Of a stretch of DNA of 64,000 bases, positions 17,451-35,319 are shown one piece after another. The stretch lies in the NCBI GenBank assembly GCA_015660855.1, contig JACSDG010000054.1, positions 1,981 through 65,980 on the forward strand. The letters run 5' to 3'. A model generated the notes under the pieces. The model had not been told where the DNA came from and made no database searches. It was given only the letters and a program-made list of their open reading frames with translations. The DNA is from Magnetococcales bacterium. GTDB taxonomy: Bacteria > Pseudomonadota > Magnetococcia > Magnetococcales > UBA8363. Within the stretch, counting starts at the first letter, position 1. Each line of letters starts with the position of its first letter. Made by a program: the position numbers and the translations under genes.

Positions 17451-20400
17451 ATGAGTTTGTCAATAAGACCAAATTCATTGGAAGCGACCTCCCATAGTGT
17501 TACCCCGGAGACGATCGCGGGTGATGGTGTTGGAGCTGGTTTGGATTTGGTGGTTCCCGATGTGGCTTTGCTTCTCGAGGGTCACTATCGGCGTGTCGGC
17601 GATGATTTGGAAATTCGCGGGCCTGATGGCCAGTCATGGACGGTGGATGGCTATTTTGTCTATGCGCATCCACCGGTGTTACTGGCCCCCAATGGTGCTG
17701 TGTTACTCCCGGAGATTGTGCAGTCGCTTTTGGTCATCGATCCCGTTCATGGGGCCACTTTGGTTGCAGGTCCCACCATGGTGGTTGAGGTTCCTCCTGT
17801 CATAGGAAAAGTGGGAGAAATCGTCGGCCAGGTCACGGCCAGGGGCACCGGTGGCGTTGAACGTTCCCTCAAAGAGGGAGACGTTATCTTCAAGGGCGAT
17901 GTGCTTCAGACCAAAAAGGGGGAATTGATCAAACTGGTCTTCCCCGATGGTACCGTTTTTCAGTTGGGTGAAGAGGCACGGGCCGTCATCGATAAATTTA
18001 TCTTCAGTCCTGCCACCAGAGAGGGTGGTTTTGAAGCGACGGTAACCAAGGGTATTTTCAGTTTTGAAAGTGGTGCCATTTCCAGTCTGAATGCCGGTCG
18101 CCACTCCACCATTAAAACACCGACCGCAGTTGTCGGAATTCGTGGCAGCCAGTTGTCGGGCGAGGTTACGGCAGACGGTTCGACGACGGTGGTGCACTCT
18201 GCCGGAATCCTGGATATTTCTGACGCCAGAGGACAGGGAACGGTGACTTTGGTGGAACCTGGTTCGGCTACCCAGGTGGTTTTTGGGGTGGGTGCTCCGG
18301 AGCCGGTATTCAAGGCCCCCGCCAGTTTCATCTCCCGTTTGGAAAGTCAGTTGGATATCCAAAAGGTAAAAGAAGAACAAAAAAAAGAGGATTCCGGGAA
18401 CAAGCCAGAACAAAAACCTGAAGGAAAAAAAGAGACCATCCAAGAGGAAGGAGGGCCAAAGGAAAGTAAAAACGAGGGTGCTCCAGGAGAAAAAACAGGG
18501 GAAACAAAAACCGAATCGCAAACCGAGGCGATTGATGATGCCGAAGAAACCATTGCCGATCCGGATGTAACTACAGAACAGGTGGAAAGTGCCTCGGTGT
18601 CGGAAACCACCGTGGCAAAAAATGCCGAAGAGGGCGTGCGAGTGCCATCGTCCAGTGGGATGGACGACGTTGGAAAAATGGGATCCAATAGTGACGGGGT
18701 TTCTTCTGGTGCAATGGAAGTCATGGATCCCCTTACGGCAGGAATGGATTTGGGTGTGGGATCCCTGGCCGATTTGATCGGGACTGGTGGGGCCATGGAA
18801 GGGGCATTGGTCGAGGTGGGGGCCGTGGGTGAGACGTTGGGCCCCGCGCCAGTTTCTGTTTCCGCACCGCCTCAAATAACCTTGGTGTCCCAAGGGATTT
18901 CCGGAGTTGATCCGGTACCCACTCCGGATTTGCCGACAGAAAAAATTTTGGATACAGCCACAGAGGTTAAAAAACCGTTGGCACCGGACTCGCCTTCGCC
19001 AGATGAACCTGCGGGGGAGCCTGAATTAAATCTGGAAGATCTTTCAGGCGGTTCTGAGTTTGCGGCCACTCCAGATTTGGAAGCTTTGTCCGCTTTGGTG
19101 GAATCTGCGCCAGCACAACCCGCCCCGGTTGAAACCGCTCCAACGCAACCCGCCCCGGTTGAACCCGCTCCAACGCAACCCGTCACAACAAATCCCACCG
19201 TGACAGAATCTGTTTTTACAGAACTCTTTCCCACAATGGAAACTTCTTCGGAACCACCTCCGGAAATGGTACCGACCGACGTACTTCCTCCGCCCGAACC
19301 CGTTGTAAGCCCGATTGAACCTCTGGTCTCTTTGACCCCTCCCGTTGCAGACAGAAGTGTCAGCACAACGTTGACCGTTCCGGGTGGAGGAAGTTCCCAA
19401 GGGCAAATTTTCACTGAAAGGCCAAGTATTGCGTACATCAATGCTCCCCCCACAGGATCGGTTATCATTACCGGGGAACTTATTCAGGGGCAAACCCTGA
19501 CGGTGTCCAATACCCTGGCAGATGTGGGTGGATTGGGGATGATTCATTATCATTGGTGGGGGAACGATATTCAAATTTCCGATGCCACAGGTTCCACTTT
19601 GTTTTTGACCGAGCCTTATGTGGGCAAAGCCATCAGAGTCGTGGCGGAATATACCGATGGTCATGGAGTGGCGGAACGGGTTGAGAGCAATATCACCAGC
19701 CTGGTTGCCAACACCAACGACTTTCCCGCAGGATCGGTAACCCTTGTCGGCGACATGGTAGAAGGGCAAACACTGACGGTTTTCAACACCGTTGTGGACG
19801 CCGATGGGGCGGGAATCATTGCCTACCGCTGGCAGGCGGATGGGGAGGATATCGTCAATGTCCCCAATAACAGGCTCATTTTGACAGATGACCAGGTCGG
19901 TAAAATTATCAGAGTTGTTGCAAGTTATACCGATGGCCATGGCACACTGGAGAATGTCATCGGTACGGCGGAAAGCCGGGTGGCCAACATTGACGATATC
20001 CCTACCGGATCGGTGTTCATCTCCGGAGATCTTGTTCAGGGTGGTATCCTGGTAGCTACAAATACTTTGGACGATGAAGATGGTCTTGGAGAGATTGGAT
20101 ACCAGTGGCGGGTGGATGGTTTTGCTGCGGCTGTTGGTGACCGCCTTGTCTTGACCGAGACCCATGTAGGCAAGGTGATCACTGTCAAAGCGGGTTATAC
20201 CGACGGCCACGGAGAGGAAACAGAGGTCGTGAGCGGTCCAACCGGGGTGGTTGCCAACCTTAATGATCTTCCGGCAGGATCGGTAACTATCGGTGGAAAT
20301 CCTCTCCAGGGACAAACGTTGACGGCAATCTCTTCCTTGACCGATTTGGATGGGATGGGTCCTGTAAGCTTTCAATGGTTTGCCGATGGGACTGCCGTGA

Positions 20401-23400
20401 CCACCGGTTCAACTTTGACTCTGTCCGAAGCTCAGGTGGGTAAGACCATCCAGGTCGAAGCCCGTTATACCGATGGCCATGGAAATATGGAGGCCGTCGC
20501 GAGCACTCCAACCGGGCTGGTTGCAAACCTTAATGATCCTCCGGTGGGATCGGTAACCATCGGTGGAAATCTTCTTCAGGGACAAACGTTGACGGCAACC
20601 GCTTCCCTGACCGATGTGGATGGGATGGGTCTTGTAAATTTTCAATGGTTTGCTGATGGGACTGCCGTGGCCACCGGTTCAACTTTGACCCTGTCCGAGG
20701 CTCAGGTGGGTAAGAGCATCCAGGTCGAAGCCCGTTATACCGATGGCCATGGATATGCCCAAACCGTTGCGAGCACTCCAACCGGGCTGGTTACAAACCT
20801 TAATGATTCCCCGGCAGGATCGGTAACCATCGGTGGAAATCCTCTCCAGGGACAAACGTTGACGGCAACCGCTTCCCTGACCGATTTGGATGGGATGGGT
20901 CTTGTAAGTTTTCAATGGTTTGCCAATGGGACTGCCGTGGCCACCGGTGCAACTTTGACCTTGTCCGAGGCCCAGGTGGGTAAGATCATCCAGGTCGAGG
21001 CCCGTTATACCGATGGCCATGGGTATGGTGAAACCGTGGCAAGTGCCCCTACGGCAAGCGTTGCCAATGTGAATGATCCCTCCTCCGGAAGCCTCACCAT
21101 TGCGGGAACAAACCAGGTGGGACAGGTTTTGACGGCCAACACTTCCGCCATACTTGATGCCGACGGGTTGGGGACTTTTGCGTTTCAATGGCAGCATTCC
21201 TCCGATGCTGGAGCCACATGGAGCCACATCGCTGGAGCAAATACGGGTTCCTTTACTGCGAGTCTGGTCGATGTCACAACCTTGTTGCGGGTCGTGGTTT
21301 CTTATACCGATCAAAGGGGGACTTCCGAATCCTTGACCTCAAGTTCCGTGACCGTCCTTCCCCATGCTGTGGTGTCGCTGTCTTCCCTGAATGGCAGCAA
21401 CGGTTTGCGTCTGAACGGTGTGGCGGATGCGGATTGGAGTGGTTATTCGGTTGGCGGAGCCGGGGACATCAACAGCGACGGTTTTGCCGACGTTATCATC
21501 GGGGCACGCCATTCCGATCCAGGTGGACTCGACTCCGGGGCCAGTTATATCGTCTTTGGCAAGGCGACCGGTTTTACCTCGCCTCTTGAACTTTCCAGCC
21601 TGAATGGTTCCAATGGTTTTCGCCTGGATGGGGTGGCGGCGGGTGATTTGAGCGGTATTTCGTTAAGTTCGGCTGGTGACATCAACGGCGATGGTCTTGA
21701 AGATTTTATCATAGGGGCCAGTGGTGCCAATGTGGGGGGAATCGACTCGGGTGCAAGTTATGTGGTTCTCGGGAAAGCTTCCAGCTTTGCTGCCAATGTG
21801 GGCCTTGCCACCCTGAATGGCACCACCGGTTTTCGTTTGAACGGTAGCACAACGGAAGACCAGAGTGGTTTTGCGGTGGCCAGAGCCGGCGATATCAACG
21901 GCGATGGTTATGGAGACATCATTGTTGGTGCCATAAATGCCGACTGGGGAGAGAGAGATTCGGGTTCGGCTTATCTCATTTTTGGTTCGGGATCGGTTTT
22001 TGCTTCGACAGTGGGTCTTTCCACGCTGAGTGGCACGGGGACCGGTTTCCGCCTGGATGGCGTGGCACTGGATGACCAGTGTGGTGTCTCTGTCAACGGT
22101 GCCGGAGATGTCAATGGCGACGGCTTTGACGATTTGATCGTGGGTGCCCATGCAGCGGATCCGGGGGGAACCCATTCGGGAGCGAGTTATGTGATCTTTG
22201 GCAAAGCCTCCGGTTTTGCTTCGACGATGGCCCTTTCCGCCCTGAATGGTACGACCGGCTTTCGTTTGACCGGAGGCGCGGCTGGTGATGGGAGCGGTTA
22301 TTCCGTCAGCAGTGCCGGAGATGTCAATGGCGATGGTTATGACGACCTTCTCATTGGTACTCCCAAGGCCAGTCCGGGGGGAAATTTATCGGGCGGTGCT
22401 GCCGTGGTTTTTGGCAAAGCCTCCGGTTTTGCCGCAACCATCGATCTTGCAACGTTGGATGGCACCAACGGTTTTCGTCTGAATGGCGCGGCGGCTGGTG
22501 ATCATAGCGGTTGGTCGGTGAGCCGCTTGGGAGATTGTAATGGCGACGGTTTTGCCGACCTTCTGGTGGGAGCCAAGGATGCCGGACCGACTGGTGTTGT
22601 TTCCGGGGCCAGCTATGTGATTTTTGGCAAGGCTTCCGGTTTTACCGCAACCCTCGGCCTGGCTTCGCTGGACGGTACCAACGGCTTTCGCATGGATGGT
22701 GTCGGGGCGGGAGATTGGAGTGGGAGTTCGGTAAGCGGCCCGGGCGACATCAATAACGATGGCTTCGCAGATATGCTGGTGGGGGCTTACGGTGCTGATC
22801 CGATAGGTTCAAATTCGGGAGCTTCTTATGTTTACTTCGGTGGTAACTTTACCGGAGCCTCTGCCAATCCCCAGACTCTGAGCGGAACCTCCAGTGCCAA
22901 TGTTTTGCGGGGTGGATTGGGGGCGGATACACTGACGGGAGGCGGCGGGGCGGATGTATTGTTGGGTGGGGCAGGAAATGACATCCTGGTGGTGGCCGAC
23001 ACCTCCTTCTTGAAAATCGATGGTGGAAGTGGCAGCGATACCCTGAGTTTTTCTGGTGGTGGTATGAGCCTGAATCTGACCACTGCTGGAATGGCAGGTA
23101 AAATAAAAGATGTTGAAATCATCGACTTGACCGGGACTGGAAACAACAGCCTGACCTTGACTTTGGCCTACCTGAACCGGATTACCGGGGGGAATACCGT
23201 TCGTATCGATGGCAATGCCGGTGACACGGTAACTTTTCTGGCTGGAGGAAGTCTGGCCTCTGGTGCCTCTTTGACCCTGAACACCGCCGCCACCTTCAAT
23301 AATTCAACAATCAATGGCACCCTGGTGTATAACTCTGCATCGAGTTTTTCCGCTCTTAACTTGGGAGGGAGTGGCGCATTCGTCGTTCAGAATGCTTTGG

Positions 23401-26400
23401 GACTGCGGGGAACGGGTAGTATCGGCCCGGCGGTGACAATCCAATCCGGTGGTACTCTGACCATTGACGGCAGTACGGCCTATGGTTTCTCCACCCAGAC
23501 ATTCAATGCCGACATAAACAATGCCGGCAATCTGGTTTTTAATTCCGACAATATCTCCTATAACGCCACCCTGACCCTGGGGGCGGGTAAAACCTTGACC
23601 AATACCGGGACCATCACTCTGGGTGGGAATGTTAGTGGTGGTGATATTATTTATGGTAACGTCACGAACACTGGAACCATCAACATTGCGATCGATGATT
23701 TAAATATTAACAATGCGACACTGTTCAATGCGGTAGGTGGGACCATCAGCACGACCACCGGTCGTACTTTGACCGTGACAGGCGGTAGCACTCGTTTTGG
23801 AACGGGAACGAGTTTGACGGGTAGCGGTACAGTGGATTTGACTGGAAACCACACCCTGGACATTGGCAGCGGATACACCCATTTGGCAACATCCACGGCA
23901 ACCTTGAAGTTTGGCGGAATTGTGACAGTCAACGGGACCGGTTCATTTGTGAACCAGAGTACTCTAAGTCTGCGCAGTTCCGATGATATTTTTAACGTCG
24001 CCGTGATCAACGCGGTCGGAGCCAGTTTAATCATCGATGGTTCGACATCCCATGGCTTTTCCACTCAGACATTCAACGCCGATGTAACCAATGCGGGTAC
24101 CCTGACTTTCAGCTCCGATAATATTTCCTTCAATGCAGCCCTGACTTTAGCTTCCGGAAAAACCTTGACCAATACCGGGACCATGACTTTGAGTGGCAAC
24201 ACATCAGGGGGTGACATCATCAATGGTAACGTTACAAATACTGGAACAATCAACGTAACGGTCGATGATCTGACCATCAACAACGCAACCTTGTTCGATA
24301 CCTCCAGTGGAACCATCAGCACCAATTCCCTTCGCGTTTTAACCATCAACGGTGGTACTACCCGTTTTGGCTCCGGTACCTCATTGCCGGGTGCCGGCAC
24401 GGTCGATCTGACCGGTACGCATGAATTGAATATCGGCAGCGGTTATACCCACCGGATCACCCATACCTCGACATTGAAATTTGGTGGTACCGTAACCGTC
24501 AATGGCAGTGGAGCTTTTGTCAATGAGGGGACATTATCTTTGCGCAGTGCCGATGATACCTTTAATGTTGCCTTCATCAATGCCGCTGGGGCCAGTTTGA
24601 TCATCGATGGTTCGACGGCGTCCTCTGGCTCTTCCACCCAGACATTCAACGCCGATGTGACCAATGCTGGTACCCTGACCTTCAACTCCGACAATATTTC
24701 CTTTCATGCCACCCTGACTTTAGCTTCCGGAAAAAACTTGACCAATACCGGGACTATAACTTTGAGTGGAAACACATCAGGGGGTGACATCATCAATGGC
24801 AACGTTACAAACACCGGAACAATCAACGTAACGGTCGATGATCTTGCCATCAACAACGCAACTTTGTTTGACACTTCCGGTGGAACTGTCAACACCGATT
24901 CCTCTCGCACTTTAACTGTCAACGGTGGTACCACCCGTTTTGGCTCCGGCACTTCATTGCCGGGTGTCGGCACGGTCGATCTGACCGGTACGCATGAATT
25001 GAATATCGGCAGTGGTTACACCCACCGGATCACCCATACCTCGACATTGAAATTTGGTGGTGTTGTAGATGTCAATGGCAGTGGAGCTTTTGTCAATGAG
25101 GGGACATTATCTTTGCGCAGTGCCGATGATACCTTCAATGTTGCCTTCATCAATGCTGCCGGGGCCAGTTTGATTATCGATGGTTCAACGTCCCATGGCT
25201 TCTCCACCCAGACATTCAACGCCGATGTGACCAATGCCGGTACCCTGACTTTCAACTCCGATAATATTTCCTTCAATGCCACCCTGACTTTAGCCACTGG
25301 AAAAACCTTGGCCAATACCGGGACCGTAACCTTGAGTGGAAGCACATCAGGGGGTGACACCATCAATGGTAACATTACAAATACCGGAACAATCAACGTA
25401 ACGGTCGATGATCTGGTTATCAACAGTGAATCGTTGTTTAATACAGTGGGAGGAACTCTCAGTGCCAGTACCGGGAGAATCTTGACGGTGAATGGTGGTA
25501 CCAGTCGTTTTGGATCTGGAACAGTCATGACCGGCAGTGGTACGGTCGATCTGACTGGCGTTCATACCTTGGACATCGGCACTGGCTATACCCACCAGAC
25601 GACCAGTACTGCCACACTGAAATTTGGTGGTACGGTCACGGTGACCGGGACCGGTACTTTTGTCAATGCGGGAACATTGTATTTGCGTAGCACCAATGAT
25701 GTTTTTAATGTCAATTTTTCCAATCTTGCCGGGGCCAATCTTTACATCGATGCAACGACCTCCTATGGGGCTTCCACCCAGACTTTTAATGCCGACCTGA
25801 CCAATGCCGGTACCCTGACGCTGAGTTCCGATAATATTTCATTCAATGCCGCGTTGGTCATGGGAACTGGAAAAACTTTGACCAATACCGGGACTCTTAC
25901 CCAGGGAGGCAGTACCTCGGGTACAAAGTCCATTACGGGTACGGTTATCAACACCGGTGCAATCAACGTCCTGGTTGATGATCTGACCGTCAATGGTGCA
26001 TTGACAAGTGGTGGAACGATCACTATGGCCTCTGGAAAGAATTTTTCGCTTCAGGGGGCCAGTAATCATATAACTCTGCAATCATCAAGCATTCTCCAGG
26101 GGGCAGGCACCTTGAGTATTGCCAGTAGCGGAGGTTCCAACCAGGATGGAACCATTCAGCCTGGAAATGCTGGTACTGCGGGGTTATTGACCATCAGCCA
26201 TTCTGCCTCTGCACTGGCCTTTGGTGATACATCCGTTCTAAACCTGGATTTGGGGGGTATCTCGGTAGGGACGCAGTATGACAAACTGGTAATTTCTGGA
26301 AGTGTTGTCTTGAATGGAACCATTAACATCAATTTGATCAATAGTTTTGTTCCTTCCGGTGGTCAAAGTTTTACAGTCATGAGTTATTCCTCGGCTTCCC

Positions 26401-27842
26401 AATCGGTGGACCGGATCAACGGTTTGAATGTAGGGAGCGGGGTGGTTTTGGACCCTGCCTTTTCCGCAACCAGCCTGGTTTTGTCTGCGCGCACAGTCAC
26501 TTTTGCGGGAGATTCCAATGCCAACGTTGCGGCTGGGACGGCTGGACAGGATGTCATGCTGGGAGGTGATGGTAGTGACACTCTGACCGCCAATGGCAAC
26601 GATCTGCTCTTCGGGGAAGGGGGCAACGATGTTATTGAATTGAACAATCTGAATTTTAATTTTGTGGATGGAGGGGCAGGGATCGATACCCTCAAGGTTG
26701 CCGACCTTAACCTGGATATGACAACGGTATCGGGCTATCGCTGGACCGGGTTTGAAGTGATCGATCTGCAGGCTGGCAGCGGCTCTCATGTACTCAGATT
26801 GACATCGTCCTACCTAAGCCAGGTCATTCCTTCGGGGACCGAATTGCGGATCATGGGGGACGGCAGCGATACCGTCCATATAGGCACGGGCTGGACCTTG
26901 ACCCCCAATGCAACGACCATCGATGGCGAAGTCTACAACCGCTATACCCAGGGGGGAACATCTCTGCTTGTCGATACCAACCTTGTGACCGCGTTGGATC
27001 CCATTGTCCTGGACCTGAACGGCGATGGTGTCCAGTTGGTCGATTTGGACTTGGGTATTCGCTTCGATATGGGCTTGACGGGAGTTGGGCAGGCAACGGG
27101 GTGGGTTGGACCGGAGGATGCCTTGTTGGCGTTGGATCGCAACCATGACGGTGTCATTCAAGATGCGACGGAATTGTTTTCGGAGCGCATGTTTGCCGGG
27201 GCGGCTTTTTCTGGCATGGAGGCTTTGTCTCTGCTGGATGAGAATGATGACCATATCTTTGATTTTCAGGACATCGCGTATAGCGATGTTTTGGTTTGGC
27301 AGGACAAAAACCAGGATGGTTTTTCCGACAAGGGGGAGATGCTGTCTCTGGCTCAGAGGGGTATCGTTTCGGTATCACTCGATACGGTTGGCGACGGGGA
27401 ATGGAAGGGAAGCAACCAGATTTTGACAGAGGGCCATTTTGCTTTCGCAGACGGTCGGTCGGGGGAACTTCAGGAGGTGGCGTTTTATTATCGTCCCGTC
27501 GAAGTTTCCGCCTCTCCAGCGCAAGAAGATGGGGCGGCGGTCATGCCTGCCCAGAATGCCGGGACGGTCATCGAAGAATGGCCGCCCCAGGTGGATCAAC
27601 TGGATGACCCTGTAGTTTTCGAGCAACGCCTGACAGACCTTTTAAATGCCCTGGCCCAAAATGAATTTCAGGAGTCTGTGCCAAGGGAGGCCTTTGGTTT
27701 CATGGATAGGATGGATTGGCAAAAAGGGAATGAATGGCCGACGGGTTATAGTGACTTGGTGGATCAGGCCAACATCCTTTTGCCTGAGGATTTGCTTCCT
27801 GGAAATGCCGATGTGGCGGGGACAGAAGGAGTGATTTGGTAG
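17451..27842 (+). CDS. Giant (3463 aa) multidomain RTX-type surface/adhesin protein
   Basis: FecR-like domain (IKTPTAVVGIRGS), 7 Ig-like repeats, FG-GAP repeats, GGxGxD RTX nonamers, 190-aa repeats, C-terminal DPIVLDLNGDG...GWVGPEDALLALDRN domain; GGAGG RBS; no Sec signal seen. Confidence 0.9.
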   Translation: MSLSIRPNSLEATSHSVTPETIAGDGVGAGLDLVVPDVALLLEGHYRRVGDDLEIRGPDGQSWTVDGYFVYAHPPVLLAPNGAVLLPEIVQSLLVIDPVHGATLVAGPTMVVEVPPVIGKVGEIVGQVTARGTGGVERSLKEGDVIFKGDVLQTKKGELIKLVFPDGTVFQLGEEARAVIDKFIFSPATREGGFEATVTKGIFSFESGAISSLNAGRHSTIKTPTAVVGIRGSQLSGEVTADGSTTVVHSAGILDISDARGQGTVTLVEPGSATQVVFGVGAPEPVFKAPASFISRLESQLDIQKVKEEQKKEDSGNKPEQKPEGKKETIQEEGGPKESKNEGAPGEKTGETKTESQTEAIDDAEETIADPDVTTEQVESASVSETTVAKNAEEGVRVPSSSGMDDVGKMGSNSDGVSSGAMEVMDPLTAGMDLGVGSLADLIGTGGAMEGALVEVGAVGETLGPAPVSVSAPPQITLVSQGISGVDPVPTPDLPTEKILDTATEVKKPLAPDSPSPDEPAGEPELNLEDLSGGSEFAATPDLEALSALVESAPAQPAPVETAPTQPAPVEPAPTQPVTTNPTVTESVFTELFPTMETSSEPPPEMVPTDVLPPPEPVVSPIEPLVSLTPPVADRSVSTTLTVPGGGSSQGQIFTERPSIAYINAPPTGSVIITGELIQGQTLTVSNTLADVGGLGMIHYHWWGNDIQISDATGSTLFLTEPYVGKAIRVVAEYTDGHGVAERVESNITSLVANTNDFPAGSVTLVGDMVEGQTLTVFNTVVDADGAGIIAYRWQADGEDIVNVPNNRLILTDDQVGKIIRVVASYTDGHGTLENVIGTAESRVANIDDIPTGSVFISGDLVQGGILVATNTLDDEDGLGEIGYQWRVDGFAAAVGDRLVLTETHVGKVITVKAGYTDGHGEETEVVSGPTGVVANLNDLPAGSVTIGGNPLQGQTLTAISSLTDLDGMGPVSFQWFADGTAVTTGSTLTLSEAQVGKTIQVEARYTDGHGNMEAVASTPTGLVANLNDPPVGSVTIGGNLLQGQTLTATASLTDVDGMGLVNFQWFADGTAVATGSTLTLSEAQVGKSIQVEARYTDGHGYAQTVASTPTGLVTNLNDSPAGSVTIGGNPLQGQTLTATASLTDLDGMGLVSFQWFANGTAVATGATLTLSEAQVGKIIQVEARYTDGHGYGETVASAPTASVANVNDPSSGSLTIAGTNQVGQVLTANTSAILDADGLGTFAFQWQHSSDAGATWSHIAGANTGSFTASLVDVTTLLRVVVSYTDQRGTSESLTSSSVTVLPHAVVSLSSLNGSNGLRLNGVADADWSGYSVGGAGDINSDGFADVIIGARHSDPGGLDSGASYIVFGKATGFTSPLELSSLNGSNGFRLDGVAAGDLSGISLSSAGDINGDGLEDFIIGASGANVGGIDSGASYVVLGKASSFAANVGLATLNGTTGFRLNGSTTEDQSGFAVARAGDINGDGYGDIIVGAINADWGERDSGSAYLIFGSGSVFASTVGLSTLSGTGTGFRLDGVALDDQCGVSVNGAGDVNGDGFDDLIVGAHAADPGGTHSGASYVIFGKASGFASTMALSALNGTTGFRLTGGAAGDGSGYSVSSAGDVNGDGYDDLLIGTPKASPGGNLSGGAAVVFGKASGFAATIDLATLDGTNGFRLNGAAAGDHSGWSVSRLGDCNGDGFADLLVGAKDAGPTGVVSGASYVIFGKASGFTATLGLASLDGTNGFRMDGVGAGDWSGSSVSGPGDINNDGFADMLVGAYGADPIGSNSGASYVYFGGNFTGASANPQTLSGTSSANVLRGGLGADTLTGGGGADVLLGGAGNDILVVADTSFLKIDGGSGSDTLSFSGGGMSLNLTTAGMAGKIKDVEIIDLTGTGNNSLTLTLAYLNRITGGNTVRIDGNAGDTVTFLAGGSLASGASLTLNTAATFNNSTINGTLVYNSASSFSALNLGGSGAFVVQNALGLRGTGSIGPAVTIQSGGTLTIDGSTAYGFSTQTFNADINNAGNLVFNSDNISYNATLTLGAGKTLTNTGTITLGGNVSGGDIIYGNVTNTGTINIAIDDLNINNATLFNAVGGTISTTTGRTLTVTGGSTRFGTGTSLTGSGTVDLTGNHTLDIGSGYTHLATSTATLKFGGIVTVNGTGSFVNQSTLSLRSSDDIFNVAVINAVGASLIIDGSTSHGFSTQTFNADVTNAGTLTFSSDNISFNAALTLASGKTLTNTGTMTLSGNTSGGDIINGNVTNTGTINVTVDDLTINNATLFDTSSGTISTNSLRVLTINGGTTRFGSGTSLPGAGTVDLTGTHELNIGSGYTHRITHTSTLKFGGTVTVNGSGAFVNEGTLSLRSADDTFNVAFINAAGASLIIDGSTASSGSSTQTFNADVTNAGTLTFNSDNISFHATLTLASGKNLTNTGTITLSGNTSGGDIINGNVTNTGTINVTVDDLAINNATLFDTSGGTVNTDSSRTLTVNGGTTRFGSGTSLPGVGTVDLTGTHELNIGSGYTHRITHTSTLKFGGVVDVNGSGAFVNEGTLSLRSADDTFNVAFINAAGASLIIDGSTSHGFSTQTFNADVTNAGTLTFNSDNISFNATLTLATGKTLANTGTVTLSGSTSGGDTINGNITNTGTINVTVDDLVINSESLFNTVGGTLSASTGRILTVNGGTSRFGSGTVMTGSGTVDLTGVHTLDIGTGYTHQTTSTATLKFGGTVTVTGTGTFVNAGTLYLRSTNDVFNVNFSNLAGANLYIDATTSYGASTQTFNADLTNAGTLTLSSDNISFNAALVMGTGKTLTNTGTLTQGGSTSGTKSITGTVINTGAINVLVDDLTVNGALTSGGTITMASGKNFSLQGASNHITLQSSSILQGAGTLSIASSGGSNQDGTIQPGNAGTAGLLTISHSASALAFGDTSVLNLDLGGISVGTQYDKLVISGSVVLNGTININLINSFVPSGGQSFTVMSYSSASQSVDRINGLNVGSGVVLDPAFSATSLVLSARTVTFAGDSNANVAAGTAGQDVMLGGDGSDTLTANGNDLLFGEGGNDVIELNNLNFNFVDGGAGIDTLKVADLNLDMTTVSGYRWTGFEVIDLQAGSGSHVLRLTSSYLSQVIPSGTELRIMGDGSDTVHIGTGWTLTPNATTIDGEVYNRYTQGGTSLLVDTNLVTALDPIVLDLNGDGVQLVDLDLGIRFDMGLTGVGQATGWVGPEDALLALDRNHDGVIQDATELFSERMFAGAAFSGMEALSLLDENDDHIFDFQDIAYSDVLVWQDKNQDGFSDKGEMLSLAQRGIVSVSLDTVGDGEWKGSNQILTEGHFAFADGRSGELQEVAFYYRPVEVSASPAQEDGAAVMPAQNAGTVIEEWPPQVDQLDDPVVFEQRLTDLLNALAQNEFQESVPREAFGFMDRMDWQKGNEWPTGYSDLVDQANILLPEDLLPGNADVAGTEGVIW
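19440..21360 (+). repeat. Seven 270-276-nt Ig/cadherin-like domain repeats
   Basis: Units start at 19440, 19716, 19992, 20262, 20532, 20802 and 21072 (NDxPxGSVTI.G...GQTLT...D.DG.G...QW...YTDGHG). Units 4-6 are near-identical in DNA. Confidence 0.92.
21390..22850 (+). repeat. FG-GAP/integrin-alpha beta-propeller repeats (7)
   Basis: Recurrent G.SV..AGD.NGDG.DD..VGA...SGASYV.FG. Confidence 0.9.
23451..25960 (+). repeat. 570-573-nt (190-aa) Thr/Gly/Asn-rich tandem repeats, 4 full plus one partial
   Basis: Equivalent positions at 23451, 24021, 24591, 25164 and 25734 (IDGST..GFSTQTFNADVTNAGTLTFNSDNISF). Confidence 0.92.
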
Positions 27843-27898: not shown

Positions 27899-29038
27899 AT
27901 GAAATTCGAGGCATTCCAGTCCGGCAAGCTCCGTCAGCAGTACCAATACAAGAGCTTTCACCCCGCGCCCATCAACCAGGAGTGGTCCTGGGACGACCCG
28001 CGCATCGGCACGTTGCTGGAGCGGGCGTCCAGGTCATTGGGGGAGTTGAACGCATTCACCCTGATCGTGCCCGAGGTGGATCTGTACCTGCAAATGCACG
28101 TTCTCAAGGAGGCCAATCTTTCCAGCCGCATCGAAGGCACCCGCACCGAGATGGACGAGGCGGTGCTGGAGGAGGAGGAGATTCTGCCGGAACGGCGCAA
28201 CGACTGGCGCGAGGTGCAAAACTACGTCTGTGCCATGAACGAGGCCATTGCCAGCCTGCGCGAGTTGCCCCTGTCGTTGCGGCTGTTGAAACAGACCCAC
28301 GCCACTCTCATGCAGGGGGTGCGCGGCGAGCGGAAAACGCCGGGCGAATTCCGCCGCAGTCAAAACTGGGTGGGTGGAGCGACCCTGGCCGACGCCGCCT
28401 TCATCCCGCCCCACTACGACGACCTGCCCGATTTGCTGAGCGATTTGGAAGCCTTCTGGCACAACGACGCCATCCAGGTACCCCACCTCATCCGTTGTGC
28501 CCTTTCCCATTACCAGTTCGAGACCATCCATCCGTTTCTTGACGGCAATGGCCGCATTGGTCGCCTGCTCATCACGCTCTATCTGGTAAGCCACGAATTG
28601 TTGGCCAAGCCCTCCCTCTATCTCTCCGCGCATCTGGAAAAACACCGAGGGGCCTATTTCGACGCCCTGACCCGGGCGCGGGAATCCAACGACCTCGGTC
28701 ACTGGTGCCGCTTCTTCCTCCAGGCCGTGGAGGAGACCGCCGAGAAAGGCAAGGAGACCTTCCGCCAACTGCTGGCCCTGCGCCAGGAGATCGACGGACG
28801 TATTGTCACCCTGGGACGGCGGGCGGAAAATGGGCGGCGATTGATTCAATTTCTTTACCGGCGTCCGGCGGTCAATGTCGGACAAGTGGCGGTGGAACTG
28901 GGACTTCAATACCAGGCCGCCAATCAACTGGTGGCGGCCCTCGGCGAGATGAAATTGCTGGAGGAGGTGACCGGCTACCAGAGGAACCGCTTTTTCCGGT
29001 TCCGGCCCTACCTGGATATTTTCCAGGCCGAAAAATGA
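27899..29038 (+). CDS. Fic-family protein (class II, with C-terminal HTH)
   Basis: HPFLDGNGRIGR catalytic motif; N-terminal SSRIEG inhibitory motif; GC-richer than the flanks. Confidence 0.93.
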   Translation: MKFEAFQSGKLRQQYQYKSFHPAPINQEWSWDDPRIGTLLERASRSLGELNAFTLIVPEVDLYLQMHVLKEANLSSRIEGTRTEMDEAVLEEEEILPERRNDWREVQNYVCAMNEAIASLRELPLSLRLLKQTHATLMQGVRGERKTPGEFRRSQNWVGGATLADAAFIPPHYDDLPDLLSDLEAFWHNDAIQVPHLIRCALSHYQFETIHPFLDGNGRIGRLLITLYLVSHELLAKPSLYLSAHLEKHRGAYFDALTRARESNDLGHWCRFFLQAVEETAEKGKETFRQLLALRQEIDGRIVTLGRRAENGRRLIQFLYRRPAVNVGQVAVELGLQYQAANQLVAALGEMKLLEEVTGYQRNRFFRFRPYLDIFQAEK

Positions 29039-29123
29039 ATATGGAATTCCTTATTGTGATTTCACGCCATGAAAAGATAATATGGAAACCGTTATAGTGA
29101 TTTGCCCATAGGGAGCACCTTGG

Positions 29124-29486
29124 ATGTTCAACGAAGAAAACACCGTCGAGCAGATGGTTCTGGACACCCTCTCCAGGCAGGGCTGGTGTTTCGTGGCCGC
29201 TGACGCGCTGGGACGCGCCCACAACGATGTCTTCGTCGAATCCATGGTCCGGGAGGCGTTGACTCCTGCCTGAAGCCCCACGAGACCGACTACAAGTGGT
29301 TAACCCAGGTTTACGCGTCGGTCAAGCCCCCCAGCGGCCATGGCAAGCTGCTCTGGCACGCCCTGGGGGCCAAGACCATCGAACTGGTCCAGGGAGAACG
29401 TCCACATCGACACCGTCCGGGATGATCTGGACACCCTGGTGATGGATGCGGAGGTTCTTGAAGACTTGCTGGCAGCCAAGGATCCC
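29124..29486 (+). pseudogene. hsdR: Type I restriction subunit HsdR remnant (N-terminus fused to a C-terminal segment)
   Basis: MFNEENTVEQMVLDTL...VFVESMVREAL joined at about 29262 to CLKPHETDYKWLTQVYASVKPPSGHGKLLWHALGAKTIELV/ENVHIDTVRDDLDTLVMDAEVLE. Confidence 0.7.
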
Positions 29487-29615
29487 GTCCAAATTTATCG
29501 GGAACTGGCCAAGAACCGACCAGACGCTTTCCGACCCAATTTGGCAACATCCTGTGGCGCAAGGGCTATGGTGTTGAAAGGTCTGGAACGGCAGGAGGAG
29601 GCCCTGGCTTCCATC
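29487..29615 (+). pseudogene. TPR-repeat gene fragment
   Basis: VQIYRELAKNRPDAFRPNLATS...LERQEEALASI resembles the 42-aa RPDAFLPDLA-type TPR unit. Confidence 0.6.
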
Positions 29616-29861
29616 GTCGTGTATTGGTTCGGCGCTTACAGAGAACGATCTCCTTGCCAGACCAGAAAGGCAAACCAACCAAATGCCCTACAGTTCGGTG
29701 GGTATTCCAGACATTTACGGGAATCCATCTGCTTATTATTAAAGATCTACAATGCGTTATGCTTAATATGAACGAGTACCATTGGAGGGTCTTGGCACTC
29801 CTCGGAAAACGCTATGAGGCCATATATTCCTAAAACGTGTTCTAGGGGTGCGGAATGTCGG
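29616..29861 (+). mobile_element. IS1634-family transposase 3' fragment with right end
   Basis: LPDQKGKPTKCPTVRWVFQTFTGIH...VLALLGKRYEAIYS*, followed by TGCGGAATGTCGG. Confidence 0.8.
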
Positions 29862-29940
29862 GTCTAACGAGGATCACACCAGCAATGGCGGCATGCCGAT
29901 GGCCGCAAGACCATCCTGGCCGGCCCGGCCGGACGTCGTC

Positions 29941-30018
29941 ATGAAACGAGTCGGCAATCTTTTCGATCCCATTGTTGTCTTCCCCAACCTTTGGCGGGCA
30001 ATGCACAAAGCATGGCGC
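29941..30018 (+). pseudogene. N-terminal stub of a reverse transcriptase (DGR-like)
   Basis: MKRVGNLFDPIVVFPNLWRAMHKAWR resembles the MKRxGNLxxxIxxFxNLxxAxxKA start of DGR-type RTs. Only 26 codons. Confidence 0.55.
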
Positions 30019-30189
30019 GTCCCCGAACCTCCGTGGACATATATGTCCCCGGATTCCCGCATATCGAAAGGCCGAATATGTGCCAGCAGTCACGACCCTG
30101 TTTGCGCCACCACAAAAAAAAACTCTTGCACTGGGGTACGGGTCCATATATGTCCCCGGATTCAAAGTGGACATGCAGTCCCCGGACTT
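30019..30189 (+). repeat. GTCCCCGG direct-repeat cluster (REP-like)
   Basis: CATATATGTCCCCGGATTC is identical at 30038-30056 and 30145-30163; degenerate copies at 30019 and 30167-30189. Confidence 0.8.
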
Positions 30190-30219
30190 AGACGGATTTC
30201 GGAATTATGGAATTATACC

Positions 30220-31563
30220 CTATATGTATTTTTCCACTATGACGTCACTAATTCCTGGGGATATAAATCCAACGTTTCTTGGATTTTCTTCAGGAGAAGG
30301 AAGCATCCGCAAATGATCTTTCCCTGACATCATCGCACCAAGAGTTTTTGCAATCATGATTTTCATCATTTTCCTTAATTTGTCACCGGCCAAATTGCCG
30401 AGAGCAGTGATTGCCATAATTCGCGCATCCGCGCTATCGTCAATTCTCTCAAAAAGAGCGTCTACAAGGTAACGGGATCGACGGCACATGTAGTAGCGAT
30501 AGTTTTTATGTACAAGACTATTGATAGATGAAGTCGGGTTAAACCAGATTTCATCAACATTCAGAAACGATTTTTGTATGCCAATGTCGTCCAGCCGCCT
30601 TAGTTGCAAGCCGGATGTCCAACCGTACTCCTCACCCTCCATGATAATTATCTTCTTTATGTTTTGTGCATCTAGATCTTGGAGTGCCTCCTTAAATATA
30701 GCATTGCAAGCAAACACTGTTTGGTTGTGACGCAGTTCAATATATCTCAATAAAAATTGCGCTAGATTCTGAAGCTTTACATCGTCCGCATCCTTAAATA
30801 TTGAGGCAAACCCCTTGGTACGACTCAAACCAACTATTCGTCTAGCCGACATGTCTGGAGCTATATCATCAATATATGAAATCCCATTTTCAGATTCTTG
30901 AAGGACAAGATTCCATGGATTTGGAAAATCCTGAAATAAAGCCATTAGATCAAATGAGGGGTCCATTTTAAAAAAAGCTTTACAGTTTGCACAAAAGCAT
31001 GTCAGATGAATCCTTCCTTGTTCTGCACCCATCCCCCATATGTTAACAACATCCAAAACCACACCTGCTAATCGTGTCTTGCTCGGATCAAGGCCTTGAG
31101 TAGCCAAATCAACCGCTGTGCCAAGAATTGCTCCAAGTAGATACTGGATCTTAGTGTTCCCGAAGCACACTCTTGGGGAGCCAATGCCCCGGGAATCCTC
31201 GACTTGTACAGCCTCAGATAACGCAAAAGGCAACCTCGGATCTATTGACAAATAGACTTCTCTAAATTCCCCGCTAACCATGCGTATTACAGCATTGAAA
31301 TTCCCGGCTCCAATATTGGCTTGCCTTAGTTGGCTCAACACGCGGGAATGCGGATACCGTATTCCATCAATGTCGAATAACAACCCATCAGCTTGAGAAA
31401 CTGGAATTACGATACCTGCCGGATCAGCCCCCCACGTTTCCACAAATCTTTTTTTATACTCTTTCATGGAACTGACTGTCAGAAGTCCTAGATGGGGAAT
31501 GTCTAACAGTCCACCCTGGTAGATGCGATCTCTCTCATTAGAAACTTGAAATTTTCTACCCAT
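30220..31563 (-). CDS. Hypothetical protein, possible glycoside-hydrolase-like TIM barrel with CxCxxC site
   Basis: 447-aa AT-rich ORF with AGGAGG RBS; VCFGN...LAGVVLD...TCFCANCKAFF. The fold call is inference. Confidence 0.7.
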   Translation of the reverse strand: MGRKFQVSNERDRIYQGGLLDIPHLGLLTVSSMKEYKKRFVETWGADPAGIVIPVSQADGLLFDIDGIRYPHSRVLSQLRQANIGAGNFNAVIRMVSGEFREVYLSIDPRLPFALSEAVQVEDSRGIGSPRVCFGNTKIQYLLGAILGTAVDLATQGLDPSKTRLAGVVLDVVNIWGMGAEQGRIHLTCFCANCKAFFKMDPSFDLMALFQDFPNPWNLVLQESENGISYIDDIAPDMSARRIVGLSRTKGFASIFKDADDVKLQNLAQFLLRYIELRHNQTVFACNAIFKEALQDLDAQNIKKIIIMEGEEYGWTSGLQLRRLDDIGIQKSFLNVDEIWFNPTSSINSLVHKNYRYYMCRRSRYLVDALFERIDDSADARIMAITALGNLAGDKLRKMMKIMIAKTLGAMMSGKDHLRMLPSPEENPRNVGFISPGISDVIVEKYI

Positions 31564-31565
31564 CA

Positions 31566-32718
31566 CTATATCCTCCTATCTAATTCAAAAAGTAAGTCGT
31601 GCCCCTTACCAGACACCCCAATCCCATCTGAGAACTCCCACAGATTACCTCTTACTATTTGCTCGCGCAGATAATTAACAGAAACATCATTTGCTATTCC
31701 CAATATACTTTCGACGACGTGTGAAAGAACAGCGAGGGATGAGACTTCTCCAGCCCTTTTCTTAAGAAAATCATTAACAATACGAATAATAACATAATCA
31801 TTTCTATGGGAACGATCTTTTTCATCAGAAGAATCGTTTCTATTGTGTTTAACAAAAGTATTATCGCGAAGCGGATTGAAATCACCAGAAATCACAGGTA
31901 AAGCATCCAATGCCTTCTGCTTTCCTCTATTATACAAATTCTCTTTGACATCCAGACCTACGGAGGTGTCTAAAGCTGAGACAGAAGACACGTCTACTTC
32001 AATAATACAGGATTCCCAAGGTAGTAACTTAAGGAGGAGTAATTGTAATTTCGCATTAGATAACATAGCCGCGCTAACAAGTTTTTTGCCAAGTGTTACT
32101 TTCCCAAATGGCCCCCAAGATTCGACACTATCTTTCAAGTGTACAGCAACAACCAGGGGTCGAAATAATTGCAACGACTCAACATTAGGCAAAACTTGTC
32201 TGTCAAGGAGAACGGAAACTGGTAAATTTGCAACGAGACCACCATCGGTAATAGAGTTCGCTAATTCACGTTTTGCTTGAAAAAAGAAAGGAAAACTGGA
32301 GGATGCAATAACCGCCTGCGTGACACTTTGCTCTGAAGTAACTTCTTTTGAATAGATAACATGGGAATAGCTAGTTAAATTGGTCGCTACCGCCACGAAC
32401 GGAATTTTTAAATCGTTAAAATTCACTTTACGGTTGTCATTAAGAGCAAGTTTGCGGCGCATTTCTTCTTCATACCATAACGCCAGCAGACCTTCATCTA
32501 TACAACCCGAAATTCATTTTTAAAAGAACAGAATATAATTCTTCACTCTCATAGCCCGCAGCGATCATTCCCCCAACCAATGCTCCGGCCGATGTCCCAA
32601 TAACATACCTAACGGAATACCCTTTTTCACATAAGGTGGCATAAACTCCAGCATGGGCCAACCCCCTAACTCCGCCCCCGGACAGAATAAAAATGACGTC
32701 TCTATTTGGCTTGGTCAT
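31566..32718 (-). pseudogene. Patatin-like phospholipase with extra C-terminal domain, frameshifted near 32500
   Basis: LSGGGVRG and GTSAG in ORF 32494-32793; VATNL, ASSSFPFFF and TDGGLVANLP in ORF 31566-32462. Confidence 0.85.
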
Positions 32719-32896
32719 ACCCCGACTCTCGCGATTTTCTTCTATGGAAAATAAATTCGACCGGTTTCCGACAAAAAAACCGTGATATATCATCGCCGGA
32801 TTTTTTCGAGAATGGCATTTTCCCTTTGTTGTGCCGACCTACCTATTTCTTTTCAATAAACTCCAAAGGTTAAATGCGACAAAGCAGGAATAATGA

Positions 32897-32965
32897 GGCT
32901 CTGCCTCCAAACCTCCGCCGGGGGGGATGATCCCCCCCGGACCCCCGCGATAGTTAAAAACCTTT
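32897..32965. repeat. Intergenic modular hairpin repeat
   Basis: GCCTCCAAACCTCCGCCGGGGGG..ATGATCCCCCC..GGACCCCCGC matches the reverse complement of 44178-44228 and matches 53690-53730. Confidence 0.75.
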
Positions 32966-32982
32966 TTTAAAAAAGCGGGGGA

Positions 32983-33291
32983 CTAATGGGCAGCTTTCTT
33001 CTTTTTTCTTTCCGCGTGGGTTTTGAGTTCCTCTGTAAGTGTGTCAATGGTCTCGTTGACGGCCGAAACCACAGTCGCGGATTCTTTGGTGGCGGTAATC
33101 GTGTTGCCGGGAACGTTGATGATCGCCTTGGCCTCAGCCCGCTGCTCGTTCTTATGCGCATGCCTTTCAATGGTAAACCTGGCACTGGTAATAGGACCGA
33201 AACGTTGATCCAAATTTTCAAGCCGCTTGGTAATCCGTTCCTTCAACTCATCGCCTATATCCAACTGACGGCCTTCAAGTTTTATTTCCAT
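32983..33291 (-). CDS. hpf: Ribosome hibernation promoting factor / RaiA family
   Basis: MEIKLEGRQLDIGDELKERITKRLENL...AINETIDTL pattern, 102 aa. Confidence 0.8.
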   Translation of the reverse strand: MEIKLEGRQLDIGDELKERITKRLENLDQRFGPITSARFTIERHAHKNEQRAEAKAIINVPGNTITATKESATVVSAVNETIDTLTEELKTHAERKKKKAAH

Positions 33292-33425
33292 TGATTTTTA
33301 TCCTTTTTATCCAGAGGTCCTTCCCAAGATCCCAGAAATCCCACCCTGTACAGTGCGACAACTGGGACGCCCGTTTTCAAGCATGGACCATTCACACCCT
33401 CCAAGATAACCAAGTTACGCCGATA

Positions 33426-33469
33426 ACTTTCTGCCAGAGAGAAAAACACACCTCTCTCCGGCAGAAAGT
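33426..33469 (-). terminator. Hairpin downstream of oadA, possible terminator
   Basis: ACTTTCTGCC-AGAGAG...CTCTCT..GGCAGAAAGT, about 15 nt after the stop; weak U tract. Confidence 0.5.
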
Positions 33470-33483
33470 CCCAGAACGCTTCC

Positions 33484-35319
33484 TCAAGAAATGGTCAGCA
33501 AAGGAGCACCAACGTTGACCAGATCCCCCTTCTTGACGTTAATGGCGGTCACCGTCCCATCCCTGGGAGACTGAATCTCCGCTTCCATCTTCATGGCTTC
33601 GATGATAACGATGACTTCTCCTGCTTTCACCTGTTTGCCAACCTCGGCCACCACCTTGCAAATGGTACCCGCCAGATTGGAGGGAACCGTCGTGCTTTTT
33701 CCGTCCGCCGCCACCGGTGCCGCCGCAGCCTTGGAAGCCCCCGCTTTGCGGGATTTCGCCGGTTGACGGGGAGACGCCTCTCCTCCCGCTACAGGGACAA
33801 AACCCCAACGCATCGAATGAATGTCCCCAATGTAGACCAGGCGTTTTCCCTCTTGTCCGCTCGCTGCCGGTGCCGCTGCCGCCGCTGCCGGTGCCGCCGC
33901 TTCCGCTTTGGGCTTGGCCGCCTCGACCCCGGGAGGGGGTTCAAAAGCTCCCGGATTGTCGCGGTTTTGCAAAAATTTTAAACCAACCTGGGCAAACAAG
34001 GCATAGATCATCACATCATCAATGACATCCTTCGCCAGTTTGATCCCCTTCTCCGCCGCCAGCTTTTTCACTTCATCGGTGAGTTTATCCACCTCCGGTT
34101 CCAAAAGATCGGCGGGACGGCAAGTGACCGGTTTCTCCCCCTTTTCCAAAACCCGCGCCTGAAGTTCCTTGTTCATCGGCGCCGGCGTGGCACCATACTC
34201 GCCCCGCAAAATACCCCGGGTCTCCTTGGCAATGGATTTGTACCGCTCACCACTCAAAACGTTGAACACCGCTTGGCTTCCGACAATCTGCGAGGTCGGG
34301 GTGACCAGGGGAATGTAACCCAAATCTTTGCGAACCCGGGGAATCTCTTCAAGAACAGCGTCAAACTTGTCGAGTGCCCCCTGCTCTTTCAACTGGCTTT
34401 CCATGTTGGTCAGCATGCCGCCCGGAACCTGGGCCACCAGAATGCGCGAATCCACCCCTCTGAGGCTCCCTTCAAACTTGGCATATTTTTTCCGCACTTC
34501 ACGGAAATAGGCGGCGATTTCTTCCAACAGCTTGATGTCCAGACCCGTATCACGCGAAGTTCCCTCAAGAATGGAAACAACCGACTCGGTGGCGGAATGG
34601 CCGTAAGTCATGCACATCGAAGAAATGGAGGTGTCCACCATGTCAATCCCGGCTTCCGCCGCTTTGAGGATGGTCGCCGTGGACATGCCGGTGGTGGCGT
34701 GGCAGTGCATGGATATGGGCAGTTTGACGGTCTCTTTGAGTTTGGAAACCAATTCCTCCGCCGTATACGGCTTGAGCAGCCCAGCCATGTCCTTGATGCA
34801 GATGGAGTGGGTTCCCAAATCTTCCATTTGCTTGGCCATATCCAGCCAAAACTGGGTTTTATGAACCGGACTCAGGGTGTAGGACAGCGTCCCCTGGGCA
34901 TGCTTGCCCACCTTGACGACCGAGCGGATCGCCGTTTCCAGGTTGCGTACATCGTTCATGGCGTCGAAAATGCGGAAGACATCCATTCCATTGACGGCAC
35001 AACGCTCCACAAATTTTTCCACCACATCATCGGCATAATGGCGATAGCCCAAAATATTCTGTCCCCGAAACAGCATCTGCATGGGGGTGTTGGGCATGGC
35101 CGCTTTCAGGCGGCGCAGCCGCTCCCAGGGGTCTTCTCCCAGAAAGCGAATACAGGCATCAAAGGTCGCTCCACCCCAGGTCTCAAGAGACCAATATCCG
35201 ATTTTATCCAGCTTGGCGGCAATCGGCAGCATGTCGTCGATACGCATGCGCGTGGCAAACAGAGACTGGTGAGCGTCCCGCAGAACGACCTCGGTAATTC
35301 CAAGTGGCTTTTTTTTCAT
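33484..35319 (-). CDS. oadA: Oxaloacetate decarboxylase alpha / pyruvate carboxylase B subunit
   Basis: [39 protein letters not shown]-terminal biotinyl EAMKME. Confidence 0.9.

Follow-up and report, generated by a model that had tools for sequence, protein, structure and literature searches.

Organization of the cassette

The DNA analysed here, a stretch of 64,000 nucleotides (nt) from a Magnetococcales bacterium (contig JACSDG010000054.1, positions 1,981 to 65,980) that we call the window and to which all coordinates refer, carries two adjacent genes on its minus strand: a patatin phospholipase gene and, directly downstream of it, a gene for a predicted TIM-barrel protein (Table 1). The two form a cassette of AT-rich, foreign composition. 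The GC content of 500-nt bins is 0.38-0.47 across positions 30500-32499, against 53-63% in the flanks (0.60-0.63 over a Fic gene at 28000-28999 and 0.60 at 33500-33999, on the side of a carboxylase gene). An earlier note on this DNA had singled out the pair as a candidate defence or toxin-antitoxin module, and its description of an AT-rich cassette of two tightly coupled genes is borne out. On the minus strand the junction reads AGGAGG-N4-TAGTGATG; the barrel start overlaps the patatin stop if GTG is used and lies 2 nt away from it if ATG is used. Homologous loci show the same abutting or overlapping arrangement, with gaps of -7 to +21 nt. A scan for promoters and terminators returned no more sites than were found in shuffled sequences.

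All of the sequence features that the earlier note described are present, including the complete set of patatin motifs. In this assembly, however, gene 1 is not a single open frame: the motifs are distributed over two pieces that lie in different frames. Both pieces match the Pfam Patatin profile (PF01734) above cut-off, the N-terminal piece with an expect value (E) of 3.8e-14 over profile positions 2-60 and the C-terminal piece with E 8.7e-9 over positions 108-190. Because these matches cover complementary parts of the profile, we conclude that the two pieces belong to one patatin gene whose frame is broken once and from which no large segment is deleted. Phospholipase effector models of PADLOC also match the N-terminal piece (E 2.7e-5) and span residues 31-202 of the C-terminal piece. 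A Pfam scan found no second patatin in the whole genome, and the match is reported with one TGA inside.

The frame break was checked against the contigs of one public run, the only one that contains the locus, in which 95% of sampled window words are present. One contig covers 30100-32424 and stops there. A second covers 32900 down to 32508 and then continues with 23 letters unlike the window; judged by eye, in the first frame these encode nothing but sense codons, whereas the window reaches a stop after four. Since the second contig diverges at exactly the break site, the sample contains another path there, and the break may be a real allele of a mixed population, reflect strain heterogeneity, or result from misassembly at this site.

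The C-terminal extension attributed to the patatin is present and is longer than had been claimed (about 110 residues, rather than about 80). Its winged-helix character is not demonstrable in the window copy, for which a single-sequence AlphaFold model of the tail is all-helical and, at a predicted local distance difference test score (pLDDT) of 56.7, uninformative.

Table 1. Features of the cassette and its edges, in window coordinates
Feature	Position	Strand	Description
Palindrome-bearing dispersed repeat, 3' of barrel gene	30025..30170		Two identical 19-nt cores, 30038-30056 and 30145-30163; low-coordinate cassette edge
Barrel gene	30220..31566	-	447/448 amino acids (aa); glycoside-hydrolase-like (beta/alpha)8 barrel (predicted); C133...C189-x-C191-xx-C194
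Coupling junction	31561..31577	-	AGGAGG 31572-31577; patatin stop TAG 31566-31568; barrel start GTG 31564-31566 or ATG 31561-31563
Last 95 codons of patatin gene	31569..31853	-	At the position where relatives' effectors carry the shared ~90-aa tail
Patatin gene, C-terminal piece	31569..32513	-	315 codons, next frame; rest of lipase domain with DGG catalytic Asp motif, linker, C-terminal tail; TAG 31566-31568
Break zone	32425..32513	-	The two patatin frames overlap at 32497-32513; 32425-32507 unbridged by independent contigs of the only public run
Patatin gene, N-terminal piece	32497..32718	-	74 codons from ATG 32718; GGGVRG oxyanion motif and GTSAG nucleophile motif; TGA 32494-32496
GC-rich hairpin repeat, between HPF and patatin genes	32885..32995		Fold z -4.9; high-coordinate cassette edge

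Fold and family of the barrel protein

The barrel protein carries the motifs that had been read in it: C133-x2-N136, GVVLD and CFCANC are all there, and across 28 homologs neither N136 nor any of the cysteines varies. Conservation extends to R278, H279, E338, W340, R362, R364 and Y365. Among the 28 aligned barrels the invariant residues are C133, N136, C189, F190, C191, C194, R278, H279, W315, T316, G318, W340, R362, R364 and Y365, while at least 90% of 87 members retain, among other residues, the four cysteines, R278, E338, W340, R362 and Y365. No obvious signal peptide was seen by eye.

A search of 1.84 billion representatives placed 121 clusters at 50% identity in the family (E <= 0.001). 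The relatives include 58 further proteins with 32-42% identity, all hypothetical and without Pfam domains, and the family occurs very rarely and patchily, in no fewer than 8 phyla. None of the 87 members matched Pfam at a meaningful level, the barrel had no match in NCBIfam 20.0 (recent anti-phage models included) or PADLOC-DB 2.0, and a search of PDB sequences with the family profile gave no match at E <= 1. The claim that no known defence system matches the barrel is therefore upheld in PADLOC, Pfam and NCBIfam. Fused long forms (883-2520 aa) were looked for and not found, which is a weak negative.

An AlphaFold2 model made with the family alignment has a pLDDT of 94.2 and a predicted template modelling score of 0.93. 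In an exhaustive structural comparison its closest neighbours were Cwp19 (Z 18.8, 277 residues aligned) and the C-domains of PgaB (Z 18.6 and 18.3), in alignments of 267-286 residues with 7-9% sequence identity. They were followed, with Z 14-16, by structures of the glycoside hydrolase (GH) families GH35 (best Z 16.0) and GH20 and by beta-amylases; GH42 (1kwk) scored Z 13.4, with a root-mean-square deviation of 3.8 over 282 residues. With the exception of one phage tail-complex chain, every listed neighbour is a glycoside hydrolase or a related sugar enzyme. Foldseek agrees on the fold class, with low TM-scores, and the ESM Atlas neighbours are GHL10 or GH42 in minorities of members. On the strength of these models gene 2 can confidently be assigned a glycoside-hydrolase-like TIM barrel at the level of fold, and at that level the GH42/GHL-type barrel of the earlier note was right.

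At the level of sequence no kinship is demonstrable. Comparison with seven GH42 domains by hhalign gave a probability of 0.3%, and PF02449 matches none of the 87 members; a short, non-significant local hhalign alignment puts C133 on the GH42 HYC cysteine. Pfam GHL10 (PF02638) likewise matches none of the 87, though the GHL10 protein Cwp19 is the top structural neighbour. Barrels of the tRNA-guanine transglycosylase type too carry a CxCxxC zinc site; this type was considered for gene 2 and dropped in view of the structural neighbours listed above.

Some members of the family are damaged or distant. In Streptomyces sp. KM77-8 (complete genome; locus L022, 5749-7457) the barrel gene is split across several frames, and in a metagenome-assembled genome of Verrucomicrobia (L015, 4741-6232) it is split over two open reading frames (ORFs); thus broken copies exist outside the window too. 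The window's own genome encodes a distant paralog on another contig (C51, 3898-7737; L024), a protein of 514 aa with 27% identity over residues 164-440 that keeps CFC-x2-C. It has no upstream effector; on the same strand downstream are an overlapping gene for a 333-aa protein without a family and then, at the locus edge, a P-loop ATPase fragment. Possibly this arrangement represents a second form of the system, with three genes.

Gene context of the barrel relatives

The neighbourhoods of 46 other barrel genes were compared, 22 from species genomes and 24 from metagenomes. They come from Chloroflexota, Acidobacteriota, Planctomycetota, Pseudomonadota, Thermodesulfobacteriota, Actinomycetota (five Streptomyces), Verrucomicrobiota and Poribacteria. 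Eleven loci had too little upstream DNA, leaving 35 that could be assessed, and in 30 of these a same-strand upstream gene is coupled to the barrel gene. Twenty-two of the 35 have an upstream gene with a shared C-terminal tail (described below), two are marginal in this respect (L004, L034), six have an effector-type gene with an unrecognised tail, and five have no partner. Collapsing near-identical loci (n = 29) gives 19, 2, 4 and 4, respectively. In 19 of the 22 cases the tailed gene directly adjoins the barrel start (-3 to +16 nt); the remaining three, near-identical TIR loci, are about 320 nt away.

The N-terminal domains of the upstream genes are diverse. Pfam identifies Peptidase_C14 in L001 and L004, TIR_2 in L010 and L013, PNP_UDP_1 in four loci, DUF4062 in L038 and TauD in L026, and the remaining genes encode membrane or coiled-coil proteins without a family. 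Even sister barrels can have different effectors: L007 (membrane) and L017 (PNP) are paired with a support of 95 in a quick tree. The pattern of genes around the barrel suggests that its partner is a swappable effector and that the conserved adjacency is the signature of a conflict module.

The same data bear on a more ordinary role, in which the barrel would be a cytoplasmic glycosidase of carbohydrate metabolism or envelope turnover and the upstream genes unrelated accessory proteins. Such a role would be in keeping with the glycoside-hydrolase-like fold, with best structural matches that act on GlcNAc (N-acetylglucosamine)-containing polymers and galactosides, and with the conservation of E338 in at least 90% of the 87 members. 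Nonetheless we regard it as highly improbable. No sugar transporter, kinase or regulator recurs beside the barrel in the surveyed loci, and the partners that do occur there (TIR, caspase, PNP, DUF4062, patatin) are typical cell-suicide effectors. Moreover, no GH family is matched at the sequence level, the family's distribution is as sparse as described above, and the cassette is absent from same-genus relatives.

Several loci depart from the simple two-gene order. In three near-identical metagenome loci (L026, L027, L045) the effector position is occupied by a TauD/TfdA-type dioxygenase domain, which is unusual for suicide effectors, and a separate DUF4062/TIR-like gene lies immediately upstream of the TauD gene. 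One metagenome contig (L036, 1-2232) carries two modules in tandem: the end of a barrel gene, a tailed small gene, and the start of a second barrel gene. In two Thermoguttaceae loci without an upstream partner, a gene of 338-349 aa without a Pfam family directly follows the barrel gene on the same strand (L006, 7493-8506; L008, 7460-8506), and it may be the partner in reverse order.

A tail domain shared by different upstream enzymes

We found a C-terminal domain of about 90 aa that is shared by different upstream enzymes in 22 loci, with E values of 1e-13 to 1e-34 to a hidden Markov model (HMM) built without the window. When 909 tails were ranked with the tail HMM, 22 ORF tails scored E <= 3.6e-15, followed by L034 (0.0026), L004 (0.0055) and the first unrelated tail (0.034). 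The HMM does not recognise the tails of the effector-type partners in L001, L026/L027/L045, L037 and L038. The shared tail belongs to no Pfam family, and its weak matches are to winged-helix-type domains. Prediction of a complex between the L017 barrel and its effector tail gave an ipSAE of 0.00 in two runs; these were made without controls and are evidence neither for nor against contact.

Comparison with known systems

The cassette resembles the type I cyclic-oligonucleotide-based antiphage signalling system (CBASS) with the effector CapV in having, within a short operon, a patatin lipase with the full set of catalytic motifs as the presumed membrane-destroying effector. The window's patatin pieces also weakly match the PADLOC phospholipase effector models and the NCBIfam model CBASS_lipase (NF041079), in the latter case with 22.2 and 17.1 bits, which do not reach the cut-off of 200. 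Here, though, the partner of the patatin is a TIM barrel and not a nucleotidyltransferase. The earlier note had seen no CD-NTase (cGAS/DncV-like nucleotidyltransferase) near the cassette, and this holds more widely: the CD-NTase/SMODS profile (PF18144) matches neither the cassette ORFs nor anything else in the genome, whose completeness is 97.8%. Because the genome lacks a CD-NTase, the cassette is not CBASS.

The bacterial STAND, Avs and NLR-like sensors also combine one constant component with the same interchangeable effectors (TIR, caspase, PNP, patatin, membrane proteins). They differ in that the constant part here is a glycoside-hydrolase-like barrel without a nucleoside triphosphatase (NTPase), and the effector is a separate, translationally coupled gene. 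The small domain shared by the upstream enzymes looks adaptor-like, in the manner of the effector-associated adaptor domains (Kaur et al. 2021, eLife, PMC8195603); a term look-up in the available text of that paper found no TIM-barrel or glycosidase core. DUF4062 or TIR domains, as in the DUF4062 "Swarozyc" and TIR NADase systems, occur upstream of the barrel in L038, L010 and L013. For those systems no TIM-barrel partner is reported in the abstract (bioRxiv 10.64898/2026.05.01.722283), and the window has a patatin instead of a TIR.

Among enzymes, the GH42 beta-galactosidases share with the barrel the (beta/alpha)8 fold and the pattern of one distant cysteine plus CxCxxC. The published account of the GH42 enzyme Gal42 describes a structural Zn cluster of Cys113, Cys153, Cys155 and Cys158 and catalytic NEY and ME motifs (PMC8573354); the four cysteines parallel C133, C189, C191 and C194 of the barrel, a putative metal cluster of like pattern. 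The barrel differs from GH42 in lacking the NEY acid/base motif, the trimerisation and C-terminal domains, and any demonstrable relationship at the sequence level. Its top structural neighbours, GHL10/Cwp19 and the C-terminal domain of PgaB (GH153), are extracytoplasmic enzymes acting on peptidoglycan or poly-N-acetylglucosamine, unlike a barrel with no obvious signal peptide. Full-text searches, with PMC13069673 and PMC8195603 among the texts, turned up no account of these effectors combined with a core of TIM-barrel or glycosidase-like type, although supplementary candidate tables may list one. The barrel is thus a core protein for which no precedent was found, whereas the combination of a constant sensor with a swappable effector is of a known kind.

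Mobility and neighbouring elements

No match to the cassette was found in 20 relatives, 7 of them of the same genus. The HPF and carboxylase genes beside the cassette are conserved in relatives at about 78-81%, and past HPF there is no synteny with the window in three genomes of the same genus. Two different dispersed repeats flank the cassette (Table 1). The palindrome-bearing element of about 140 nt on the low-coordinate side has copies in several related genomes, four of them in one complete genome, and looks like a miniature inverted-repeat transposable element or a repeat of the repetitive extragenic palindromic type. The hairpin repeat on the other side (about 95 nt, 32895-32989) has many copies in its own genome, several of them at contig ends, and occurs in related genomes as well; it probably breaks assemblies. 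A scan of 28800-33600 against Rfam gave no match.

Repeats also bracket the module in three other loci. In L013, direct repeats of 83 nt (5152-5234 and 8125-8207, 92% identical) enclose the TIR gene, the barrel gene and one further ORF; they start and end with heptamers resembling the inverse-core and core sites of attC. In L002, direct repeats of 50 nt (5362-5411 and 7477-7526) lie exactly around the two module genes, and in L021 a repeat of about 115 nt (5928-6043 and 7287-7412) follows the module and occurs again after the next small cassette. The repeats of these three loci appear to be arranged in the manner of integron cassette arrays. Integron cassettes have been reported to carry phage-defence systems (bioRxiv 10.1101/2024.07.02.601719).

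On the plus strand (27899-29035), at a distance of 1.2 kb from the cassette, is a Fic gene of the SoFic type. It encodes Fic_N, Fic and helix-turn-helix domains, and its match to the PADLOC SoFic model is full-length (E 2.9e-116). Copies with 89-92% DNA identity occur on unrelated contigs of four relatives, and the gene seems to move independently of the cassette. An ORF of 3463 aa with FG-GAP and RTX calcium-binding repeats (17451-27842, plus strand), ending 57 nt before the Fic gene, probably encodes a giant secreted adhesin-like protein.

Interpretation of the module

The effectors found beside the barrel belong to the repertoire of abortive infection, where sensing or activation normally falls to the constant component, and for this reason our favoured model has the barrel controlling the effector. 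We lean, by a small measure, towards regarding the window's cassette as a divergent member of an undescribed conflict or defence module that swaps its effectors and retains the barrel as constant sensor or regulator. On this reading the module would be horizontally mobile and most likely directed against phages by abortive infection. In its favour are the conserved adjacency, the exchange of effectors between closely related barrels, the coupled junction in the window, the absence of the cassette from relatives, the repeats around the module in three other loci and the nearby SoFic-type gene. Under this model gene 1 would be an exchangeable killing or depleting enzyme, in the window a patatin phospholipase that would attack membrane lipids, and elsewhere a TIR or DUF4062 protein (NAD+ consumers), a PNP-like nucleosidase, a caspase-like protease, a TauD-like oxygenase, or a small membrane protein. 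Gene 2 would be the constant partner, a cytoplasmic TIM barrel with a predicted zinc cluster that is translated in tandem with the effector. We infer that the barrel contacts the effector's C-terminal tail domain and through it holds the effector in check, freeing or activating it once a putative pocket (conserved Glu, Arg, His, Tyr and Trp residues) meets its cue. The tail of the window's patatin would do the same job as the family tail.

Several observations weigh against this reading, some of them concerning the family and others the window copy. No upstream partner is present in five of the 35 assessable loci (L006, L008, L018, L019, L042), and no barrel homologs were found in plasmid and phage collections. 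PADLOC gave few matches among 142 neighbour proteins of the homologs (DrmD 2, one of the reverse transcriptase/Cas1 type); matches to PDC-M60C (3) and the PN-superfamily effector (3) are possibly the upstream PNP effectors themselves. The neighbourhoods thus appear mixed and are not clear defence islands. Searches with the window's patatin pieces (tblastn) found a patatin in none of the 46 other loci. The earlier note had counted it against its own proposal should homologs of the two genes fail to co-occur, and in that narrow sense the proposal fails; what does recur is the barrel with an upstream effector-type gene, in the 30 of 35 loci noted above.

The window's patatin tail is not recognisably the shared tail (HMM E 0.28 among 909 tails, or 6.6 with the marginal members added; hhalign probability 4%). 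Pairwise BLAST against six unrecognised or marginal tails gave nothing significant, while a phmmer ranking with the window tail is suggestive: true family tails are 5 of the 14 best non-self matches. Given the dissimilarity of the tail, the window's membership in the module depends entirely on position and coupling. The window barrel keeps all 26 invariant columns of the 28-member alignment and 28 of the 30 most conserved columns of a second family alignment, yet its agreement with the well-conserved columns (99 of 128) is the poorest among the 28 (median 0.93). Several conserved arginines in its C-terminal helical part are replaced, and it sits on a long branch in the quick tree (1.76). Three-frame translation showed no uninterrupted reading frame for the patatin in this assembly. 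With a divergent barrel and a broken patatin frame, the window copy may be decaying.

These features raise the question of whether the two genes are merely chance neighbours in a decaying island, two unrelated foreign genes of which one is broken, the patatin not being the cognate partner of the barrel. The dissimilar tail, the lack of a patatin beside any other barrel, the broken frame and the most divergent barrel of its set would all be accommodated by such an explanation. We consider it very unlikely, because the stop-start junction with its Shine-Dalgarno sequence mirrors the arrangement in the family, both genes are of the same low GC content, and the roughly 110 extra C-terminal residues of the patatin are exactly where other partners carry their tail. 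In addition, six other loci have effector-type partners with an unrecognised tail, and it is to this group that the window barrel is closest. Its nearest relatives by identity are the barrels of L001, L026/L027/L045 and L038 (41-43%), all of which have unrecognised effector tails, and this hints at a second tail type that co-varies with the barrel.

The coupling, the repeats and the exchange of partners could also be explained by a toxin-antitoxin or addiction module, in which the upstream enzyme would be the toxin and the barrel a dedicated neutraliser, the pair stabilising mobile cassettes without sensing infection. Tight translational coupling with the toxin gene first, the cassette-like, repeat-bracketed sites in L013, L002 and L021, and varying toxic enzymes opposite one constant partner all agree with this. 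A barrel of 450-500 aa, highly conserved and enzyme-like (invariant Cys4, conserved polar residues), is unlike small, fast-evolving antitoxins; moreover, a single protein would need to counteract enzymes with no chemical relation to one another, which is feasible only through the shared tail, and the barrel is kept without any upstream partner in five loci. We therefore judge this explanation unlikely, though it deserves to be kept in view, and the antitoxin alternative is weaker than the model of the barrel as a sensor.

The earlier note had conjectured that the barrel senses or produces a sugar or nucleotide ligand by which the lipase is controlled. A more specific form of sensing can be imagined from the fold. 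The barrel would be an immune receptor derived from a glycosidase, recognising or cleaving a sugar-containing cytoplasmic cue of infection and thereby unleashing the effector, be it a patatin, TIR, DUF4062, caspase, PNP nucleosidase or pore, that is tethered to it through a small winged-helix-like adaptor, and the whole would travel as an integron-type cassette. The cue may be a cell-wall recycling fragment, a nucleotide sugar or glycosylated phage DNA. In this detailed form the idea is a speculative one, and we hold it to be quite unlikely.

Significance

The window copy itself is of lower value for following up the module, having a divergent barrel and a lipase frame that is interrupted in the assembly. 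Intact natural pairs exist in Acidobacteriota (L017, with a PNP effector), Zoogloea (L013, TIR), Anaerolineales (L002, membrane protein) and Streptomyces (L011). If the favoured model of a constant barrel controlling swappable effectors is correct, the known bacterial immune systems would be joined by one with a core component of a new type, a TIM barrel of glycoside-hydrolase-like fold that has no NTPase, cyclase or nuclease, and the effector kit of TIR, caspase, PNP and patatin proteins could be driven by a sensor derived from a sugar enzyme. Should the barrel prove to be an immune receptor for a sugar-containing cue, it would be the first carbohydrate-sensing trigger for the suicide effectors that are common to CBASS, Thoeris and NLR-like systems.

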